Positions 661 to 22,441 of a DNA stretch of 22,631 nt are shown here, in pieces. A program made the position numbers and the translations under genes. The DNA comes from a bacterium (GTDB lineage: Bacteria > Eisenbacteria > RBG-16-71-46). Where the stretch lies: positions 1 through 22,631 of the forward strand of contig JAYWEM010000089.1 of assembly GCA_043779265.1 (NCBI GenBank), given 5' to 3'. The first letter of the stretch is position 1. Each line of letters starts with the position of its first letter. A model generated the notes under the pieces. The model saw only the letters and a program-made list of their open reading frames with translations. It was not told the origin of the DNA and ran no database searches.

Positions 661-1485
661 CTAGCGGATCCAAGCCACTGCTCGGCGCTGACCCGTGGTC
701 TCGTCGCGGACGCGCCGTGCGGCGAGTTCGGGATTGCCGGGGTCGGTCTGGTAAGCCCAGTCGAACACGACCTGGCCCGAGGTGAGGCTGGTGACCCTGA
801 ACTTCGCGTAGTGGTCATCCCGGGTCCAAACGACGTAGCAGTGACCGGGGATCAGCTCGACCGTCCCACTGGGCGACCAGCCCGAACTCGGGGCCCAGTC
901 CACCGCATCGAGGGTCGTGGCGTAGCCGGCGTCCTGGATATCGGTGAGCCCGTCGGCCGCGAACATCTGCGCGATGCTGCCGTTGTAGCCGTAAAAGACG
1001 TCGGTCGAGGAGTGATCGAAGGCCCGCGTCGCGCCCGATGAGAAGTCGTAGCCGGCGCTCGAGGGGTTGCTGACGAAGTTCGACAGCGTGCGGCCGAACC
1101 CGGCCGGTCGTGGGGTGTCGAACACGCTCTCGTAGGTCAGATCGCTCTCGTTGCCCTCGTGGTCGACCGCGGCGACGGCGAAGTAGCGGGTCGAGCCATT
1201 CGAGAGGCCCGAGACGACGAAGCTCGTGCCGCTCGTGGTGCCGACCCGATCGTAGGGACAACTGGACCCGGTGGCGCACTGCGCCATGTAGACGCGGTAG
1301 CCGGCGACGTCGTGCTCGGTGTTGCGAAGCCAGCGGAGCGTGGCCTGCTGATCGCCGGTGACGCTGATGAGGCCGCGTGGGGCGGCCGGGGGCGTGATGT
1401 CGCGCGGCGAGACGACCTTGTCGTCATCGCAACTGGTCAGCAGCGTCACGGACGCCAGTGCGATCGCGATAGTGGCAAGACGCAT
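661..1485 (-). CDS. Lipoprotein with fibronectin type III domain plus beta-rich C-terminal domain
   Basis: AGGAGG SD; lipobox-like LLTSC; FN3 pattern PAAPRGL...LRW...VAGYRVY...GLSNGSTRYFAVAAVD.EGNES. Confidence 0.85.
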   Translation of the reverse strand: MRLATIAIALASVTLLTSCDDDKVVSPRDITPPAAPRGLISVTGDQQATLRWLRNTEHDVAGYRVYMAQCATGSSCPYDRVGTTSGTSFVVSGLSNGSTRYFAVAAVDHEGNESDLTYESVFDTPRPAGFGRTLSNFVSNPSSAGYDFSSGATRAFDHSSTDVFYGYNGSIAQMFAADGLTDIQDAGYATTLDAVDWAPSSGWSPSGTVELIPGHCYVVWTRDDHYAKFRVTSLTSGQVVFDWAYQTDPGNPELAARRVRDETTGQRRAVAWIR

Positions 1486-1544: not shown

Positions 1545-1560
1545 CGCAACGGACATGCCA
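1545..1560 (-). promoter_or_regulatory. Sigma54 (-24/-12) promoter for the lipoprotein gene
   Basis: Minus strand TGGCAT-GTCCG-TTGCG versus consensus TGGCAC-N5-TTGCW, about 60 nt upstream of ATG 1485. Confidence 0.7.
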
Positions 1561-1644: not shown

Positions 1645-1676
1645 AAGACCGCCGCCGGGTCTCGGCCCGGCGGCGG
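1645..1676 (-). terminator. Terminator-like hairpin closing the candidate ncRNA
   Basis: Perfect 11-bp stem CCGCCGCCGGG (1649-1659) / CCCGGCGGCGG (1666-1676), followed on the minus strand by a weak UCUU tract. Confidence 0.5.
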
Positions 1677-2082
1677 CGTGGTGTGCGCGCCTGTCTCAGG
1701 TGTGCGAACGGCGCGACACCGGATACTGGGGGACACCGGCCGGTGCTTCTCACAGCGTCCGCCTGGACATCCCCCAATGTAGGCGAGCGATATGACGTGG
1801 CCGGTGTCCGACCCCAGAGCTTCTGGAACCTCAGGTGGTTCACCGCGAACCGGGTTCCAGTGCGGTGAGGTCCGAGGCCGTCCCTCCGTCTGCTCCAGGG
1901 GTGCAACTCGAAGATGTCGTGAGATCCCGATTGGTAATCTCCAAGCTAGCCGGTAGCAGAGGCCGATGCGTTGTCCGTCAGACGGGGCTCGTACCCTCGA
2001 CCGACCCCTGCGGAACCGGCTAGCTCAGATTTCGAGGCCGGTGATCGCTCACCGGTTCTCTTTGGAGGTCCCCCCCTCCGAC
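1645..2082 (-). ncRNA. Candidate large structured non-coding RNA (~440 nt), family not recognised
   Basis: No credible ORF. Sigma54-type promoter immediately upstream. Seven consecutive stem-loop or multibranch domains, with G-U pairs and a GCGA tetraloop that favour the minus strand. Terminal hairpin at the 3' end. Confidence 0.55.
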
Positions 2083-2092
2083 GAAGTACACG

Positions 2093-2108
2093 AGCACCCC
2101 GCGTGCCA
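2093..2108 (-). promoter_or_regulatory. Sigma54 (-24/-12) promoter, predicted +1 near 2082
   Basis: Minus strand (T)TGGCAC-GCGGG-GTGCT: GG and GC at the correct spacing, one mismatch in TTGC. It lies just downstream of a sigma54 activator gene. Confidence 0.65.
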
Positions 2109-2273: not shown

Positions 2274-2392
2274 AGATGGATGGAAAGGAATTTGATAGCG
2301 CAATTCAGAAGAAAGTCTTCAGGTCGGGCTGCGATGGCAGGGGCGCCTGTGAGACACCTTCATGCCCGACTCTCGAAGTCAGGCAGAGATGT

Positions 2393-5300: not shown

Positions 5301-5503
5301 TCGGCGCGAGCGAGGCACAACAGAAGGCGAACACGATCGAGAACGGCGTCCGGGCGCGTCTCCGCCAGCGCCGCCCGGTAGGAATCCCGGGCGCCGACGA
5401 AGTTATCCGCTGCCAGATGAAGATCGCCGACCGATTCGTGCTGACTGGCGCCGGGGGGCGCTTGATTCGCACGCAATGGATCGGGGGGGATCGCTCGGTG
5501 CAC
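2393..5503 (-). CDS. Sigma54-dependent enhancer-binding protein: N-terminal TPR-like repeats + GAF + AAA+ + Fis-type HTH
   Basis: About 520 aa of TPR-like helices (e.g. ALNSLGLVYKNLREWREATRLLEQALQID); GAF-like segment (SLVCVPL...VGMVFVD...F...DLNLL); Walker A GETGTGKG; ESELFGYVQGAFTGA; Walker B IFLDE; RFLEDLYYRL; C-terminal GNKTRVARELGLSYPTL. GTG start with GAGGG SD. Confidence 0.93.
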   Translation of the reverse strand: MHRAIPPDPLRANQAPPGASQHESVGDLHLAADNFVGARDSYRAALAETRPDAVLDRVRLLLCLARAEYLRGEFTAARARALEARRVGRVLEDPRERALVAASLAATHGESGEYRRSQRYARYAYAILRDSDDHRTVARMALVLGNGLARLGRPQEAIDWLQNSVATFRRIDDSEGLVSALNSLGLVYKNLREWREATRLLEQALQIDERKGYYARMRIHHQNLGLIRYRLGQWEMADEHFRQSLRIARELSHPQGEAAAWLALGMLARRRRNAEQAEEHFQLALELAQKGSARREALLAREFLGELEIDRDHGPAALAWLEPALEDAKAIAPRGDLVMELEIRIGMALQLTGRVEEANTLLVRGLALAERLGDRIEQGIALRALARLDAVRGQVSSMESRLREAAEHFEQLGETFELARTLAAFGEYLPLLPTSARLRLPLEPVAEAARRAAAIFRQLGVVALAAEALLALARLEAEREQYDHALTLLEQAEAWLSENADPEAEGRAAQLRREIERQYVAVSLSTCNEFRALEEANRLFRETSDMDGLLSQVVKLAVEHAGGDRGFVAFTSSPGRLEVVAQHGLGRDRARRVLRVLEDVVGARFAENGPVFSSRVAADPRFSRAMTEALEGVGSLVCVPLNFPSQSVGMVFVDRLNDNLLGAFKQRDLNLLAVLANSAAVGIVEAQRSLLLVENRQLRDQLRPSSSTERVVSQSREVADILTLLRKVSDSDATLLFMGETGTGKGLFAQVVHEQSKRRDRPFVQVNCAALPEALLESELFGYVQGAFTGATRDKSGLFEEAAGGTIFLDEIEKIPEAVQAKLLHVLDRGEIRPVGATRAKRVDARVVCATSSDLRERIRDGRFLEDLYYRLNDITVRVPSLRERREDIPVLAQHFLAVYSRQMEKAVRGFAPEVLKALLDHEWRGNVRELEKTVKRMIVLADEGDTLGLDLLPADVAESTASSARVPVLQRDTVAVGAPPRGDRSLKSAVTEMERQLIGEALERNRGNKTRVARELGLSYPTLLQRIRAFGLEQR

Positions 5504-5595
5504 GGCTTGAACCCTCGATTTGACTCACAGATCCCGGTAGTAGTCCGGCGGTTCGGTCCGAACTACCTGCGACGGATCGAGACGGCTTTCGCCGA

Positions 5596-5895
5596 CTAGA
5601 TCCGTCGCTTCAGGAACTGCGAGAGCCAGAGTCTCGTCCACGCATGGAAGCTCGTGTCGCCTGCCTCTTCGCCAGCCGGCCGCATCGACGCCCGATCGAT
5701 CTTCGGGGGCGATGGAACGGTTTGACCGGTGAGGTCAGGCTCACCCGCACTGGGCGCGGCGACTGGTCGGGGCGGCGTGATCGAAGCGGTGCCGCGTCCG
5801 AGACGCTTGGCAGCTTCGGCCGTCGTCCCGAGCATCGTCAGGCTCAGGGTGGCGAGCAGCAGTGTGTGGAGGATCCTGTTACGGAGCTTCTCCAT
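5596..5895 (-). CDS. Small secreted protein or pre-pro-peptide (99 aa; alternative GTG start at 5907)
   Basis: GGAGGGAG SD; Sec signal MEKLRNRILHTLLLATLSLTMLGTTAEA; Pro-rich low-complexity middle containing AGEPD; Trp/aromatic basic C-terminus FHAWTRLWLSQFLKRRI. Confidence 0.75.
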   Translation of the reverse strand: MEKLRNRILHTLLLATLSLTMLGTTAEAAKRLGRGTASITPPRPVAAPSAGEPDLTGQTVPSPPKIDRASMRPAGEEAGDTSFHAWTRLWLSQFLKRRI

Positions 5896-6014
5896 CGCGT
5901 TGTCCACTCCCTCCGTCGACGGACGTCAGGGTAGTCAGGAATGTTCCCCGCAGAACTCTAGATGAGCCCGACGGGACGGCACTGGTGAGGGGACCTTCGG
6001 TTGAGCGCGCCCTC

Positions 6015-8684: not shown

Positions 8685-8712
8685 GCCGCATCTGCCACAA
8701 TCGAGTGTGCAC

Positions 8713-10206
8713 ATGAAACTGCGCACCCGTCTGCTGGCTGCGTTGCTCGCATTCGCCTTCCTGCCGACGTTGGTGATGACGGTGTTCACGCTCGAGCTGT
8801 TCGGCCGTGCGACGGACCGTTGGTTCCTGCCCGGCGTCGATCGCGCGCTGGGCGCCGCGGTCGGAGTGAGCCGTGCGCCACTCGCGCGACTCGAGGCCAC
8901 CGTGCTCGATCGCGCCGATGACTGGGCCGGCGGACTTCGGGACCTTCCACTCGACGCGCGCGGGCGCAGCGCGCTGCGCGACGCCGTACACGACGCCGGG
9001 CTCGACTTCGCCCAGGGGTATGCGCGCGTGGGAGAACGTTGGCAGCTGCTGGAGACGGTCACCGCCGCCGGCCCACCGGACACGCTCGACCTCTCGAACG
9101 CCATCGGCAATGCACTCGCCGGTGGCCGCATCGTGCGTGACGACCGAGGCGCGCTGGCTGGTGTGTCGCAGGCCGGCGAGGAGATGGCGCTGGTCGCCGG
9201 CGTTCGCCTGCCGCAGGGCTACTTCGAGCGTCTCGATGATGTCGTCCGCGCGCGCGAGTACTACCCGCGCCTCGCCGTGCTCGTCGATGTGCAGCGCCGC
9301 TATGTGTGGTTGCTCGTGCTCGGCCTCGGCCTCGTGCTCACGCTACTGGCGCTCGGGACGGCACAGGCCCTCGCACGGAGTCTCTCGAGACCGCTGGGAG
9401 CACTCGCTCACGGCTTCGAACGAGTCGCCGAGGGCGACCTCACGGCGCGTGTCCCCGAGACCGGGCCGCAGGAACTGCGAATGCTGGCCGCCTCGTTCAA
9501 CGGCATGACCGCCCGCCTCGCCGATGCGCGCACGCAGTTGGCCGTCGCCGAACGCGAGGCGGCTTGGCGGGATGTGGCACGCAAACTCGCGCACGAGATC
9601 AAGAATCCGCTGACGCCCATGCGGCTCTCGTTGCATCGCCTGCAACGGCGTGCCGGTCTGGTGCCCGAGGACCAGCGGTCGGCCGTCGCCGACAGTCTCG
9701 AGGCGATGCTCAACGAGGTCGAGCACCTGACACGCCTCGCCGAACAATTCTCGCAATACGCGCGCCTTCCCGAGCCACGACGCGAGCACGTCGATCTGGC
9801 GAAACTGGCGCGCGACGCGGTCTCGCTGCACGAGCCCGAGCACCTCGTCCTGCGCTCGAACGCGCTCGATCCCTCGCCGGTCATCGGGGACCCCCTGCTT
9901 CTGTCACGCGCGCTCCACAATCTCCTGCTCAATGCCTGCGAGGCGAGTTCCGAAGGCGCCGAGGTCGAGGTCCGTACCGGCGTCACCGAGAGCCGGGCGT
10001 GGGCCGAGGTCCTCGATCGCGGCCCGGGCGTGCCGACGACTCTCGCCGAACAGATCTTCGAGCCGTATGTCAGCACCAAGAACCGCGGCAGCGGACTCGG
10101 GCTCTCGCTCGTCCGCGATGTCGCCAACCAGCATGAGGGTTCGATCACCCTGTCACCCCGCGAGGGCGGTGGCATGGTGGCTCGCTTCGAGATGCCGTCG
10201 GCCTGA
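8713..10206 (+). CDS. Membrane sensor histidine kinase, NtrY-like (2 TM, HAMP, HisKA, HATPase; no obvious PAS)
   Basis: AAWRDVARKLAHEIKNPLTP H-box of NtrY type; NLLLNA, DRGPG, IFEPY.STK..GSGLGL boxes. Confidence 0.9.
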   Translation: MKLRTRLLAALLAFAFLPTLVMTVFTLELFGRATDRWFLPGVDRALGAAVGVSRAPLARLEATVLDRADDWAGGLRDLPLDARGRSALRDAVHDAGLDFAQGYARVGERWQLLETVTAAGPPDTLDLSNAIGNALAGGRIVRDDRGALAGVSQAGEEMALVAGVRLPQGYFERLDDVVRAREYYPRLAVLVDVQRRYVWLLVLGLGLVLTLLALGTAQALARSLSRPLGALAHGFERVAEGDLTARVPETGPQELRMLAASFNGMTARLADARTQLAVAEREAAWRDVARKLAHEIKNPLTPMRLSLHRLQRRAGLVPEDQRSAVADSLEAMLNEVEHLTRLAEQFSQYARLPEPRREHVDLAKLARDAVSLHEPEHLVLRSNALDPSPVIGDPLLLSRALHNLLLNACEASSEGAEVEVRTGVTESRAWAEVLDRGPGVPTTLAEQIFEPYVSTKNRGSGLGLSLVRDVANQHEGSITLSPREGGGMVARFEMPSA

Positions 10207-10217
10207 CGCCGAGGAGG

Positions 10218-11603
10218 ATGAAGATGTCCGAACGCTTCACCGTGCTCACCGTGGATGACGATCTCGCGGTCCGTCGCAGCCTGAGGGGACTCCTCGAGGA
10301 CGTCGGTCACGAGGTGCTCGAGTCGCCGAACGCCGAGCATGGGTACGCCACACTCGGCCGCCAGCGAGTCGACGCCGTTCTGCTCGACCTCCGCATGCCG
10401 GGCGAGCATGGGCTCGATGCACTCATCCGGATCCGCGAACAGGCGCCCGACACGGCCGTCATCATCGTCTCGGGTGAGGGAACCGTGGAACACGCGCTCA
10501 AGGCCGGTCAGCGCGGCGCGTTCGACTTCATCATGAAGCCCGTGAACGATCCGCAGCACCTCCTCGAGACGCTGGATGAGGCCGTGCGCATCACACGTCT
10601 GCGTCGCGCGACCGAGGCAGCCGCACGGGCGGCTTCAGCGCCCCGCCCTTCCTCCCCCGCACTCGCGGACGACCTCGGGATGATCGGCACCAGCGCCGCC
10701 ATCGAACGTCTGCGCGAGCAGCTGAGGAAGGTGGCACCCTCGAACGGGCGCGTCTTGATCCTGGGCGAGAACGGTGCCGGCAAGGAACTCGTGGCGCACG
10801 CGATCCACGCGCTGTCCAAGCGGTCCGAGGGCGCGTTCGTGAAGCTCAATTGCGCCGCGATCCCGAAGGACCTGCTCGAGTCCGAGTTGTTCGGCTTCGA
10901 GAAGGGCGCGTTCACCGGCGCGGTTCAGAGCAAGAAGGGCCGCCTCGAGATGGCCGATGGCGGCACGTTGTTCCTCGACGAGATCGGCGATCTCGCGCTC
11001 GAGGCGCAGGCCAAGCTGCTGCGTGCACTCGAGACCGGGGAGATCGAACGGCTCGGCGGCACCAAGAGCGCCAAAGTGGACGTACGACTGCTCGCGGCCA
11101 CCAACAAGGACCTCGCCGACGCCGTGCAGCAGGGCGAGTTCCGCGAGGACCTCTACTTCCGGCTCAACGTGCTACCGCTTCAGGTGCCGGCGCTGCGAGA
11201 GCGGCGGGGCGACGTGCTGCGGCTCGCCGAGCACTTCCTGGCGCAGTTCGCCGGGTCCGAGGGACGCATCGTTCAAACGTTCGAATCGGATGCCATCGCC
11301 CTGCTCGAGGACTACCACTGGCCCGGGAATGTGCGGGAACTCCGGAATCTCATGGAGCGAGCGGTCGTACTGGTGGCGGGCCCGGCGATCACCGTCGCGG
11401 ACCTGCTGCCGTGGCTCGAGGCGCGGCCGGAGGAGGGCGAGGACAGTGGTCTCAAGGGCAAGGTGGCCCGCAGCGAGATCGACTCGATCCGACGGGCGCT
11501 GGAGTCCGCCGACTGGAACGTCACGCAGGCCGCTGCCGGCCTCGGGATCGACCGCACCAACCTCCATCGCAAGATGCGCAAGTACAGCATCGCCCGACGG
11601 TGA
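10218..11603 (+). CDS. Sigma54-dependent response regulator, NtrX/NtrC family
   Basis: GAGGAGG SD; receiver (VDDD, LLDLRMPG, KP); GENGAGKE; ESELFGFEKGAFTGA; FLDEIG; Fis HTH. Confidence 0.93.
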   Translation: MKMSERFTVLTVDDDLAVRRSLRGLLEDVGHEVLESPNAEHGYATLGRQRVDAVLLDLRMPGEHGLDALIRIREQAPDTAVIIVSGEGTVEHALKAGQRGAFDFIMKPVNDPQHLLETLDEAVRITRLRRATEAAARAASAPRPSSPALADDLGMIGTSAAIERLREQLRKVAPSNGRVLILGENGAGKELVAHAIHALSKRSEGAFVKLNCAAIPKDLLESELFGFEKGAFTGAVQSKKGRLEMADGGTLFLDEIGDLALEAQAKLLRALETGEIERLGGTKSAKVDVRLLAATNKDLADAVQQGEFREDLYFRLNVLPLQVPALRERRGDVLRLAEHFLAQFAGSEGRIVQTFESDAIALLEDYHWPGNVRELRNLMERAVVLVAGPAITVADLLPWLEARPEEGEDSGLKGKVARSEIDSIRRALESADWNVTQAAAGLGIDRTNLHRKMRKYSIARR

Positions 11604-20308: not shown

Positions 20309-20385
<77 letters not shown>

Positions 20386-20391
20386 AACGGA

Positions 20392-20430
20392 GAGCCGAGG
20401 TGGGGGAACCTGCCTCGGCTCGACCCTTTT
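20392..20430 (+). terminator. Hairpin/terminator downstream of the tRNA
   Basis: GAGCCGAGG-TGGG-GGAA-CCTG-CCTCGGCTC (GNRA loop), followed by GACCCTTTT. Confidence 0.6.
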
Positions 20431-20476
20431 CGGGCCGCGCTGGCGACCGACGGCAATCGGTGCCTGACTGCTGCGT

Positions 20477-21334
20477 CTACACCCTGTCGATGAGGTGCGT
20501 CGGCTCTGGCGTCTGCCAGTCCGACATCGCCCCGTGTACCCGCTCCGCCTCGCGACGGATGCATTCGTCGCTGAGCTTCGCGTAGAGCTGAGTGGTCACA
20601 ACCGAAGCGTGACCGAGGATCTGCTGCAACGACGGCAGGCTACCCCCGCCCTCGATCCAACGGCAAGCGAAAGTATGGCGGAGCTGATGGACGTGGAACC
20701 GGGCGAGCCCCGAGTTGCGCTGGACGAACCGGTTGAACGAGCCCGCCGCCCCCTCGGAGTAGGGCACGAGCCGTGCTGGCCTCGAGAGGATCTCGCGGAC
20801 GATACCCGGGCTGAGCGGTACGCGCCGAACCCGAGTCGACTTGGTGTGGCTCACAACCAACATCCCGCCTTCGACATGGGAGGCCTCGGCGCGGACGAGC
20901 TCACCCCACCTGAGACCGGTCGCCAGCGCCAGCCGGACGATGAAGGCGTGGGGCTCGGGGATGGCCTTGACGACGTCGACCTCCGGGTCGAGCAGGCGAT
21001 CCGGCGGCTCCTCCTGGATCCGGGGCATGACGCGGCGCGGCCACGGTGACTTCGCCAGGCGCTCGGTCTCGACCGCCCAGCGGAGCATGCACCTGGCGTC
21101 CGTGAGCACGTGGCGGACGCTGCGGGGCGCGAGCCCGGTCGACTCGAGGTGCAGGCGATACTCGCGGATGTCGTCAGCACCGAGCGACACGAGGGCCCGC
21201 GCGCCCATGAACGGGTCGAGGTAGTCGCGCACGCGTTGAGCCGCCATGCCCATGTTCTTCGCGCTCCGCTGTGTTCTCACGTAGATGGCGAGCCACCGGT
21301 TGGCGGCCGCTGATACCGTGAGGTCATCGCCCAT
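20477..21334 (-). CDS. Tyrosine recombinase/integrase, Xer-sized (alternative GTG at 21346)
   Basis: Catalytic set intact: TGLRWGE (R), HTKS (K), HQLRH (HxxR), LGH, TTQLY (Y). Core-binding domain begins LTVSAAANRWL. No arm-binding domain. Confidence 0.93.
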   Translation of the reverse strand: MGDDLTVSAAANRWLAIYVRTQRSAKNMGMAAQRVRDYLDPFMGARALVSLGADDIREYRLHLESTGLAPRSVRHVLTDARCMLRWAVETERLAKSPWPRRVMPRIQEEPPDRLLDPEVDVVKAIPEPHAFIVRLALATGLRWGELVRAEASHVEGGMLVVSHTKSTRVRRVPLSPGIVREILSRPARLVPYSEGAAGSFNRFVQRNSGLARFHVHQLRHTFACRWIEGGGSLPSLQQILGHASVVTTQLYAKLSDECIRREAERVHGAMSDWQTPEPTHLIDRV

Positions 21335-21411
21335 GGATTCGGACACCCTTCGGGGGCTTCCGTTCCATCACTCCACCCCGTTAGTACCGTCACCCTGGCA
21401 CCGTGGCGCCC

Positions 21412-21440
21412 AAGGTATCGACGGGGGCAGGAGGCGTCAA
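21412..21440 (-). promoter_or_regulatory. Sigma70 promoter of the recombinase
   Basis: TTGACG-N17-TACCTT; the -35 box lies inside the 28-bp palindrome. Confidence 0.55.
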
Positions 21441-21461
21441 TAGCAAAAATGCTATTGACGC
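21434..21461. repeat. 28-bp palindrome (recombination core site or operator)
   Basis: GCGTCAATAGC-AAAAAT-GCTATTGACGC: perfect 11-bp arms around a 6-bp spacer (12-bp arms around AAAA). Confidence 0.85.
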
Positions 21462-21470
21462 GGAGCGAGC

Positions 21471-21749
21471 CTAGGCTACGCTTCTACAGTCGAAAGGGCC
21501 TTGGGCTCGCTGGCGCATCCGCAGCGTCCGCCGATGGGCCTCTCGGACGGCTTCGACGGGTTGACCGATGATCTCGGCGTAGAGCTCCTCGAACAGAGGA
21601 TCCACCTCGACGATCTGGGCTCGCTCGAAGGCGGTGACCGTGGTCAATGCACGCTTCAGGCCACGACGGCCTAGCAGCTTCACGATCTTCGCCGCGGTGA
21701 GGGAGCCGGGCGCTTCCTTGCGCAGCTTCTGGAGCGGCGTGTTCAGCAT
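21471..21749 (-). CDS. Small XRE/Cro-like helix-turn-helix protein
   Basis: TPLQKLRKE....LTAAKIVKLLG.......TVTAFERA...LYAEIIGQPVE follows the XRE helix pattern; located next to the integrase. Confidence 0.6.
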   Translation of the reverse strand: MLNTPLQKLRKEAPGSLTAAKIVKLLGRRGLKRALTTVTAFERAQIVEVDPLFEELYAEIIGQPVEAVREAHRRTLRMRQRAQGPFDCRSVA

Positions 21750-21817
21750 GGAGACTTGGTAGCACCCGAGCTAGACTCGTGCAATGGCAAAGATGCGACT
21801 TGGGGAGGGGCAAGCCA

Positions 21818-22441
21818 ATGTCTCGACACCTTCACGCACGTGTGCGCGTCGTAGCGTGCTGGGCTTCGTTTTCGGCGATAGTTCTTCTCGTTGTGGGATG
21901 CGGAGGCCCAGTCGGCTCCCCTGACCACTCGAAGAAGAGTCGCCTTGTGCATCAGTCCGTGGGAATAGGCATCGACTCCACCTGGGACAGGTTCTACTCG
22001 AGAACTGACTACACGGCCGGACGTGGAGTGAGAACCGACCTGCAGCACTCAGATGACCGCGAAGACGCCCTATGGCTTGCGTTGATGACATGTCGGAGTG
22101 ACTCGCTTGGAATCTGGACGACGCTCCTGGTGAAGTACATCGGGCGCGGAATCGCAGGACTGGATGGGTCAGCTGTGCTCCTGGTCGACGGTGCAACGCC
22201 GGTCTCGGTGAAGACCGACGTGTTCAGAGTCGATCGAACGGTCGGAGACTGCAGTTCACCCAGAGGCTGCTGGGTTGAAGAGACCTTTGCGATTGAGCTC
22301 GATGAAGACCAGCTCCTCACTTTAGCCAACGCGACAACTCTCGAGGTCACGGCAAGGGCAAGCGAGAAACGCTTCGAGGGCGGCGTGCCGAAGGCCCTTA
22401 TCAACCAAGCGAGGCGACTGTGCGAGTTGCTCGCGCTATGA
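21818..22441 (+). CDS. Hypothetical lipoprotein (mobile-element cargo)
   Basis: GGGAGGGG SD before ATG 21818; basic N-region, hydrophobic core and LVVGC lipobox. Confidence 0.65.
   Translation: MSRHLHARVRVVACWASFSAIVLLVVGCGGPVGSPDHSKKSRLVHQSVGIGIDSTWDRFYSRTDYTAGRGVRTDLQHSDDREDALWLALMTCRSDSLGIWTTLLVKYIGRGIAGLDGSAVLLVDGATPVSVKTDVFRVDRTVGDCSSPRGCWVEETFAIELDEDQLLTLANATTLEVTARASEKRFEGGVPKALINQARRLCELLAL

Follow-up and report, generated by a model that had tools for sequence, protein, structure and literature searches.

Qrr RNAs are short and Hfq-dependent, and they feed back on luxO. These small regulatory RNAs of Vibrio are driven by LuxO, a sigma-54 enhancer-binding protein with upstream sites (PMC11407668, PMC10162802). 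CrcZ of Pseudomonas is a large RNA that forms its own sigma-54 unit directly downstream of the activator gene cbrB, in conserved synteny (PMC8871633), and the Pxr RNA gene of Myxococcus, a host without Hfq, comes right after that of the NtrC-like activator PxrR and has a sigma-54 promoter and an enhancer, the loop of its first hairpin being essential (PMC5684412). RNAIII of Staphylococcus aureus is described as a 514-nucleotide (nt) activator-driven RNA that has three redundant C-rich loops forming kissing complexes and can carry coding sequence (PMC8383071), and NfeR1 of Sinorhizobium as an Hfq-independent RNA that uses three redundant seeds to silence its own regulator, ntrBC, at the translation start (PMC10746234). 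Here we describe an RNA gene on the minus strand of a 22,631-nt contig (JAYWEM010000089.1; hereafter the window) from a 3.4-Mb, 92%-complete genome of Candidatus Eisenbacteria. The gene lies behind that of a sigma-54 activator with TPR and GAF domains. Judged by its sequence, the RNA is by class probably a sigma-54 activator-driven regulatory RNA, and by Rfam score it is a member of none of the families to which we liken it.

Like LuxO-Qrr, the locus combines an activator with a probable upstream site that would drive a regulatory RNA, but the Eisenbacteria RNA is ~350 nt long, Hfq was not found in its genome, and the input region of the activator is TPR-GAF, not a receiver domain. As with CbrB-CrcZ, a large RNA occupies its own sigma-54 unit right behind the activator gene and the synteny is kept; CrcZ binds Crc/Hfq, however, whereas the Eisenbacteria RNA is A-poor (18% A), helix-rich and without a match in Rfam. 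The gene layout, the sigma-54 promoter plus enhancer and a host in which Hfq was not found are shared with PxrR-Pxr, but Pxr has three stem-loops and belongs to another phylum and another activator architecture, and the Rfam search again separates the two. RNAIII is likewise a large multi-hairpin output of one activator with redundant homopolymer-rich loops. Its loops are C-rich and target ribosome-binding sites, in contrast to the G-rich loops of the Eisenbacteria RNA, which would target C-runs and stand under sigma-54 control. NfeR1 shares redundant seeds and feedback on its own regulator, both as we propose for the Eisenbacteria RNA, but it is 123 nt long, has anti-Shine-Dalgarno seeds and is repressed rather than activated by NtrC. 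By analogy, the Eisenbacteria RNA may work like RNAIII or NfeR1 with the loop letters reversed.

We regard it as close to certain that the locus holds a real, phylum-wide, uncatalogued RNA gene. Comparison of homologous loci established the gene, its promoter, structure, synteny and modularity. The initial annotation of the window had proposed a ~440-nt, sigma-54-promoted structured RNA tied to the neighboring activator, and promoter spacing, covariation, synteny, joint absence and an upstream palindrome, all described below, argue for that proposal. Its length is another matter: the hairpin at 1680-1720 is better read as DNA sites, and therefore the conserved RNA would be a core of ~350 nt (1731-2082), in which separable modules follow one another without packing into a single compact structure. 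A transcript of ~440 nt would result if transcription reached the terminator-like hairpin at 1649-1676, and such read-through is plausible in the window's genome. A hairpin plus U tract is found in 36/60 family homologs. The features are collected in Table 1.

Table 1. Features of the RNA locus and its neighborhood, in window coordinates (aa, amino acids; bp, base pairs)
Feature	Position	Strand	Basis and remarks
RNA transcript, predicted, both ends inferred	1645..2082	-	Promoter, fold, conservation
P1, 5′ hairpin with G-rich loop 2069-2074	2064..2079	-	5-bp stem 2075-2079/2064-2068; phylum-wide invariant element, candidate seed
P2, hairpin; stem covaries, loop varies	2038..2055	-	7 bp; two-sided changes at 4/5 pairs
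P3, long helix, junction and invariant small hairpin 1985-1996	1941..2028	-	13-bp base helix; upper helices covary
P4, variable long hairpin; apex 1849-1855 conserved in part of the family	1811..1902	-	Covariation in the alignable subset
P5, long hairpin with second G-rich loop 1768-1776	1731..1809	-	Two-sided change at 15/22 pairs
Terminator-like hairpin, weak U tract here	1649..1676	-	11 bp; base pairing; not called by terminator scan
Sigma-54 -24/-12 promoter of the RNA	2094..2108	-	Motif match; conserved spacing; sigma-54 gene in genome
Conserved palindrome	2280..2298	strand-neutral	Just after activator stop codon; all 13 families tested
Tandem palindromic motif	1680..1720	strand-neutral	123-158 nt upstream of second sigma-54 promoter
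Second sigma-54 promoter, serving the downstream operon	1546..1560	-	Motif match
Sigma-54 activator gene, TPR-GAF-AAA+-HTH, 1036 aa	2393..5503	-	Pfam Sigma54_activat E 1.8e-64, TPR, GAF, HTH_8; synteny at 55/55 flanked loci
Hairpin with six-C loop, activator codons 4-9; candidate kissing partner of the G-rich loops	5479..5492	-	Predicted in most orthologs
Activator leader motif complementary to the P4 apex; lead only	5531..5538	-	Co-occurrence 30/6/4/2, Fisher p 9e-4 (strict motifs)
Downstream gene, lipoprotein with fn3-like domain (probable)	661..1485	-	Conserved synteny; weak fn3 match below cut-off; Atlas look-alikes unnamed or fn3-like

BLAST found the interval in 35/36 genomes of the family and in 1/2 of the genus. 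Families of the phylum are coded f1 to f18 here, f1 being that of the window's genome. Of the 58 activator loci, 3 have no downstream DNA, and at every one of the other 55 the RNA follows the activator. P1 is near-invariant in sequence and not only in shape. Its 16- to 18-nt pattern occurs in 169/206 genomes of the phylum, nearly always as a single copy, while the reversed pattern, serving as control, gave 1 match; the tally includes one unpublished genome, G038, on which alone no claim rests. P1 variants occupy the same place behind promoter and activator in f4, f5, f7, f8, f12, f13 and f17, with an inner stem pair altered on both sides in f12. When variants are counted, all 18 families hold the unit behind a TPR-GAF activator in at least one genome. 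Five f14 genomes do not have the P1 pattern, and there the sensory region of the activator gave weak, partial or no matches, which suggests joint loss of the RNA unit and the activator ortholog. Outside the phylum, the pattern was found in 0/301 genomes of an outside class, the one around an Ignavibacteriae record, and in 0/5 other genomes. Metagenomes contributed at least 120 P1 matches, and among the 80 with flanks, 61/61 with enough upstream DNA had the activator. Matches on viral contigs (eleven and four) look like chance, and a search for a viral relative of the lipoprotein found none. The window's genome has no extra copies of the RNA. In the literature we found no description of it, and the motif strings matched only an unrelated plant paper; large comparative surveys could list the motif, their supplements lying outside the scope of that search. 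Three loci labeled as other phyla (L056, L076, L083) carry an activator (69-72% identical) and a 5′ hairpin of Eisenbacteria type, and their labels are probably loose.

The -24/-12 motif that had been read on the minus strand is indeed present, and counting from the C of the -12 element places the predicted RNA start near 2082. A -24 motif was detected upstream of P1 at 101/103 distinct loci, 98 of which have it 28-30 nt before P1. Farther upstream lies the conserved palindrome, whose distance to P1 has quartiles of 218-231 nt in the families tested. When a profile from 91 palindrome sites was run against the genome, the top score fell at 2280-2298 (21.5 vs 15.9 for the next), a site that was itself among the 91 used for training. 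The palindrome is a probable binding site of the activator, and with the best match in the genome lying at this locus it points to the RNA as the activator's main output. As read here, the locus has two marks of a sigma-54 activator-driven regulatory RNA, a conserved -24/-12 promoter at fixed distance and a conserved upstream palindrome.

The interval had been described as free of any credible open reading frame (ORF), and our data agree: the reading frame varies between motifs (16/14/12 and 16/15/11 over 42 homologs), and no ORF is conserved. Folded against shuffled sequences, the whole interval scored z -5.2 on the minus and -3.2 on the plus strand, values that become -3.5 and -2.1 when the last two hairpins are removed, and in 16 of 164 long intergenic regions of the window's genome, folded as controls, the lowest z was -2.5. 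Seven homologs folded at z -2.8 to -7.3, the opposite strand being lower in 2/7. Most of the helices first drawn for the RNA pair as described, namely 2075-2079/2064-2068 (5 bp) in P1, 2015-2025/1944-1954 (11 bp) and 2000-2011/1956-1967 (12 bp with three G-U pairs) in P3, 1799-1809/1731-1741 (11 bp) and 1781-1785/1760-1764 in P5, and the 11-bp hairpin 1649-1676. Others needed correction. The 7-bp stem of P2 pairs and covaries, but the GNRA loop assigned to it is not conserved; a hairpin at 1921-1941 forms with one mismatch but is not conserved either; and 1892-1902/1811-1820 pairs only with bulges. The 8-bp complement 1853-1860/1823-1830 is perfect, yet both the minimum-energy fold and the homolog consensus use one long hairpin instead.

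Three RNA domains covary. In the 5′ half, 97.7% of cells pair among 62 family sequences, with 110 two-sided cells vs 28 in shuffled and at most 21 in slid alignments. For P5 the corresponding values are 95 vs 30 and at most 45 (58 distinct sequences; 1 of the 60 loci, with a mis-cut end, was left out). P4 shows two-sided change at 16/18 pairs in 20 sequences hand-picked because they could be aligned. Kinship among the sequences inflates all such counts, and the margins are wide. The 13-bp base helix of P3 is paired in 100% of the 62 sequences. The G-U pairs of P3, which had been put forward as informative about the strand, hold in every one of the 62 and so fix the strand of the RNA. These data bear on whether the locus is transcribed at all. 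An untranscribed locus, in which GC-rich sequence forms hairpins by chance alongside conserved DNA sites, might mimic an RNA gene, and the hairpin at 1680-1720 does resemble DNA sites while the plus strand also folds. We consider this explanation scarcely credible, as two-sided changes lie far above both kinds of control, strand-specific G-U pairs are kept and the promoter spacing is fixed. The invariant P3 junction (1985-2002, minus strand) resembles the ribosome-binding region of the activator (5509-5520, minus strand), possibly as a decoy and possibly by chance.

The 1710-1720/1680-1691 pairing, which requires bulges, had been counted as an RNA helix. As an RNA domain we rejected this hairpin, its spacers being without covariation (2.21 vs 2.18, p 0.44). 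The tandem palindrome is present in 49/60 family loci, and in f2, f6, f11 and f14, by reading of the sequences, it lies past the RNA terminator. It is probably a DNA enhancer of the downstream lipoprotein operon. A second sigma-54 system lies nearby at 8707-11603, with a HAMP histidine kinase and an NtrC-like regulator, and is a candidate reader of this enhancer. At two f7 loci (L419, L420) a long, well-folding leader stands after the second promoter and before the lipoprotein gene, possibly another structured RNA.

Between families the RNA ranges from about 110-140 nt to >500 nt, and beyond P1 the rest is unrecognizable from one family to another. P5 occurs in f1; the model also finds it in f3, f5, f6, f10 and f18, and its loop motif was seen in f7, f9 and f16, while it was not found in f11, f14 and f15. 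At 7/9 f10/f18 loci, a gene of ~490 aa stands between P1 and P5. The two hairpins are 1.7-2.0 kb apart there, P5 on the downstream side with a terminator-like hairpin behind it, and no match to the promoter pattern was found between the 5′ module and P5. The intervening gene (395-1861 at L408; also L409-L413 and L415) encodes a winged-helix AAA ATPase, whose resemblance to the anti-phage ATPase IteA and to proteasome-type ATPases is weak and scores far below cut-off. That the modules tolerate such different spacings argues against one compact fold, and on this comparative evidence the RNA is a string of separable modules. A structural or catalytic RNA, in which the domains pack into one ribonucleoprotein fold and the G-rich loops make tertiary contacts, would account for the long covarying helices, for the junctions and apices whose sequence stays invariant in P3, P4 and P5, and for the many invariant P3 bases that have no identified partner. 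It is nonetheless improbable, given the wide variation in length and content, the absence or displacement of P5 just described, and five free-standing genomes, themselves lacking an activator ortholog, in which a search for the unit found none. In f15 (L130-L135), a second module with an internal C-run follows ~250 nt after P1 at 5/6 loci and could pair with P1 within the same RNA.

The ATPase-bearing loci also raise the question of whether the hairpins act in cis, as untranslated regions of an mRNA under their control, that of the f10/f18 ATPase or, by read-through, that of the lipoprotein operon, with the ORF-free form as a remnant. At f10/f18 loci P1-P3 are indeed the leader and P5 the trailer of a real gene; moreover, the U tract after 1649 is weak in the window, and the second sigma-54 promoter is unmatched in f15 and f16. 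In the family of the window's genome, however, a separate sigma-54 promoter and a probable enhancer serve the downstream gene. The ORF-free form dominates the phylum under strong structural selection, nothing in the window's genome matches the ATPase gene, and the lipoprotein gene is retained even at loci without the RNA. We therefore judge a cis-acting leader or trailer to be decidedly improbable.

We next compared the RNA with catalogued families. An Rfam 15 covariance scan of the window to E 10 gave a single match in the interval, ASpks, at E 9.8 and 20 bits against a cut-off of 52, and 12 homologous loci from 11 families gave 0 matches; Rfam includes the Qrr, CrcZ, GlmY/Z, Pxr and CsrB families. 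The housekeeping RNAs, which the initial annotation had set aside, are likewise not represented here. True copies of RNase P RNA (RF00010, 269 bits) and transfer-messenger RNA (tmRNA; RF00023/ARAGORN, 164 bits) lie on other contigs, with no tmRNA in the window, and 6S RNA (RF00013) gave no match in the window. A 6S-like gene stands on another contig (L044, G000 contig C103, 3050-3241), at 45.3 bits just below the Rfam cut-off of 46.4. Signal recognition particle (SRP) RNA (RF00169/RF01854) was not found in the window's 92%-complete genome; 4/5 relatives that carry the sigma-54 RNA have a normal SRP RNA elsewhere.

A different use of the G-rich loops would be to titrate a protein, following the logic of CrcZ, CsrB and GlmY: the P1 and P5 loops, both of which contain GGA, would bind CsrA or another G-loop-binding protein and so free its target mRNAs. 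CsrA is encoded in the window's genome and in 179/206 genomes of the phylum. Neither FliW nor Hfq was found in the window's genome, so that CsrA may need an RNA antagonist. A separate LSM search was uninformative for Hfq, its control having missed the Escherichia coli protein. Invariant loops would also suit a conserved protein partner, and a sponge would cover the families without a site on the activator mRNA. GGA occurs 13 times in the RNA vs 8.8 expected, which is not a clear enrichment, and 2/13 are more than half unpaired. No A-rich repeats of the CrcZ type were found in the RNA, which leaves it unlike an Hfq sponge of that kind. CsrA is found in 0/8 genomes of f10, where P1 is kept in 6/8, and in 0/5 of f13, where the RNA is kept, and a sponge leaves the family-specific complementarity described below unexplained. 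The gene order is the same as that of cbrB-crcZ (PMC8871633). A CsrB-type sponge should have many unpaired GGA, but 14 homologs expose 0-4 each, against ~18 sites in CsrB (PMC8383071). Taken together, we think protein titration unlikely. At L343 (G000 contig C18, 1500-7300), csrA is closely followed by a small ORF and by genes for a histidine kinase and a sigma-54 response regulator, opposite a sigma-54-promoted receiver protein.

The best reading, which we favor with modest confidence, is that the RNA regulates by base pairing, with its G-rich loops as seeds, and exerts feedback on its activator. The activator would bind the palindrome at 2280-2298 and open the promoter at 2094-2108, and the trans-acting RNA so transcribed would be the main output of this adjacent TPR-GAF protein. 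The transcript would form a string of independent hairpins, with P1 and P5 exposing their G-rich loops as seeds. Pairing would begin where these seeds meet C-runs, at translation starts or close to them, and through the 3′ arm of P1 it could extend over the ribosome-binding site. One target would be the activator's own mRNA, through the six-C loop in its first codons. We infer repression from where the site lies, which is either across the ribosome-binding site or within the first codons, and the likely outcome would be translational damping of the activator, a negative feedback. Other targets must exist, because P1 is invariant also in families whose activator has no such site. Thus, the RNA probably regulates mRNAs through its G-rich loops, the activator's own included, and the TPR-GAF gene is the probable activator as well as a probable target.

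Several observations are consistent with such pairing. In codons 5-8 of the activator, the bases themselves are fixed, with Pro6 CCC in 42/43, Pro7 CCC in 35/43 and Asp8 GAT in 39/40 orthologs; the CCC share of Pro codons genome-wide is 35%. Both partners are predicted to be open, with opening costs of 0.0 kcal/mol for the P1 loop and 0.2 kcal/mol for the C6 loop. Over 50 loci from 18 families (2 of 52 were dropped because P1 could not be parsed), the start region of the cognate activator gave better pairing with P1 than any of the 20 internal windows of that gene at 14 loci, where 2.4 were expected, and the test by family gave a Wilcoxon p of 0.005. P1 variants also fit their own activator over those of other families (double-centered permutation p 0.002, 18 families, post hoc), most clearly in f13, f5, f6, f8, f1 and f9. 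In f13, f5, f8 and part of f16, an altered 3′ arm or loop of P1 is mirrored in the ribosome-binding region, and the pairing site shifts between leader and coding region among families.

A number of results weigh against this model. Two other Pro columns of the activator reach 0.81-0.88 CCC, and the stem of the six-C hairpin does not covary. Families f4, f7, f10, f12, f14, f15, f17 and f18 have a near-zero match to the activator start, and only 4/18 families fall in the best tenth when compared with 150 other start regions of the window's genome (p 0.10). The permutation test is somewhat liberal, 2/10 control windows giving p <0.05 and one 0.055; the pairing idea was framed after some of the sequences had been seen, the families are related, and several automatic start codons look wrong. 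Genome-wide, the P1 duplex ranks 74/2579 and that of P5 an unremarkable 705/2579, C-runs near starts are common (11% of genes), and no second conserved target emerged. Weighing both sides, feedback pairing on the activator is likely in part of the phylum.

Three other candidate interactions were pursued. A phylum-wide target fully complementary to P1 over the ribosome-binding site was rejected: candidates were scattered over 95/206 genomes, many were P1 itself, and control counts were similar in several families. The 17 top target candidates in the window's genome share no common function. Folding of the C-run back on the activator's own ribosome-binding site was also rejected, having a weak consensus (-1.4 kcal/mol) and no covariation, and blocking the C-run raised predicted accessibility in only some orthologs. 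Pairing between the P4 apex and the activator leader is no more than a lead: against p 9e-4 on strict motifs, looser ones gave p 0.067, the cognate-vs-other permutation gave p 0.29, and on the tree the association is not significant (tree-based pairs, p 0.5). The activator leader itself (5504-5595, minus strand) contains a GC hairpin whose loop sequence recurs in many family members, followed by the motif at 5531-5538.

A broader reading is that these RNAs are phylum-defining, Hfq-independent modular regulators that mirror RNAIII, with G-loops that read C-runs at translation starts, seed and site that changed together, and both an RNA form and an ATPase-mRNA form. We offer this tentatively and lean somewhat against it. 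If true, it would make the phylum a natural record of regulatory RNA and mRNA turning into each other. If the pairing model holds, G-rich loops would be an added type of seed, natural compensatory variants could be tested in a laboratory host, and one transcript would have coding and noncoding forms. In any case, these bacteria, which are represented here by metagenome assemblies only, have a core regulatory circuit marked by a 16-nt hairpin that lies outside Rfam and is almost unchanged across the phylum. The locus also yields a probable DNA site for an uncharacterized family of TPR-GAF activators and a sequence marker for the phylum. New here are the palindrome at 2280-2298, the form that bears an ATPase gene, the interpretation of 1680-1720 as an enhancer and the comparison of seed with target between families.

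The remaining neighborhood was also annotated. On the minus strand, the order is activator gene, RNA interval, probable lipoprotein gene and a DUF4384 gene. Directly upstream of the activator, a 103-aa ORF with a signal-peptide-like start (5596-5907, minus strand) has no matches in Pfam or NCBIfam. Toward the far end of the window, a tRNA-Met gene (20309-20385) is followed by a phage-type integrase gene (20477-21346, minus strand) and two unnamed ORFs, and this segment (20309-22441) is probably the edge of an integrated element.
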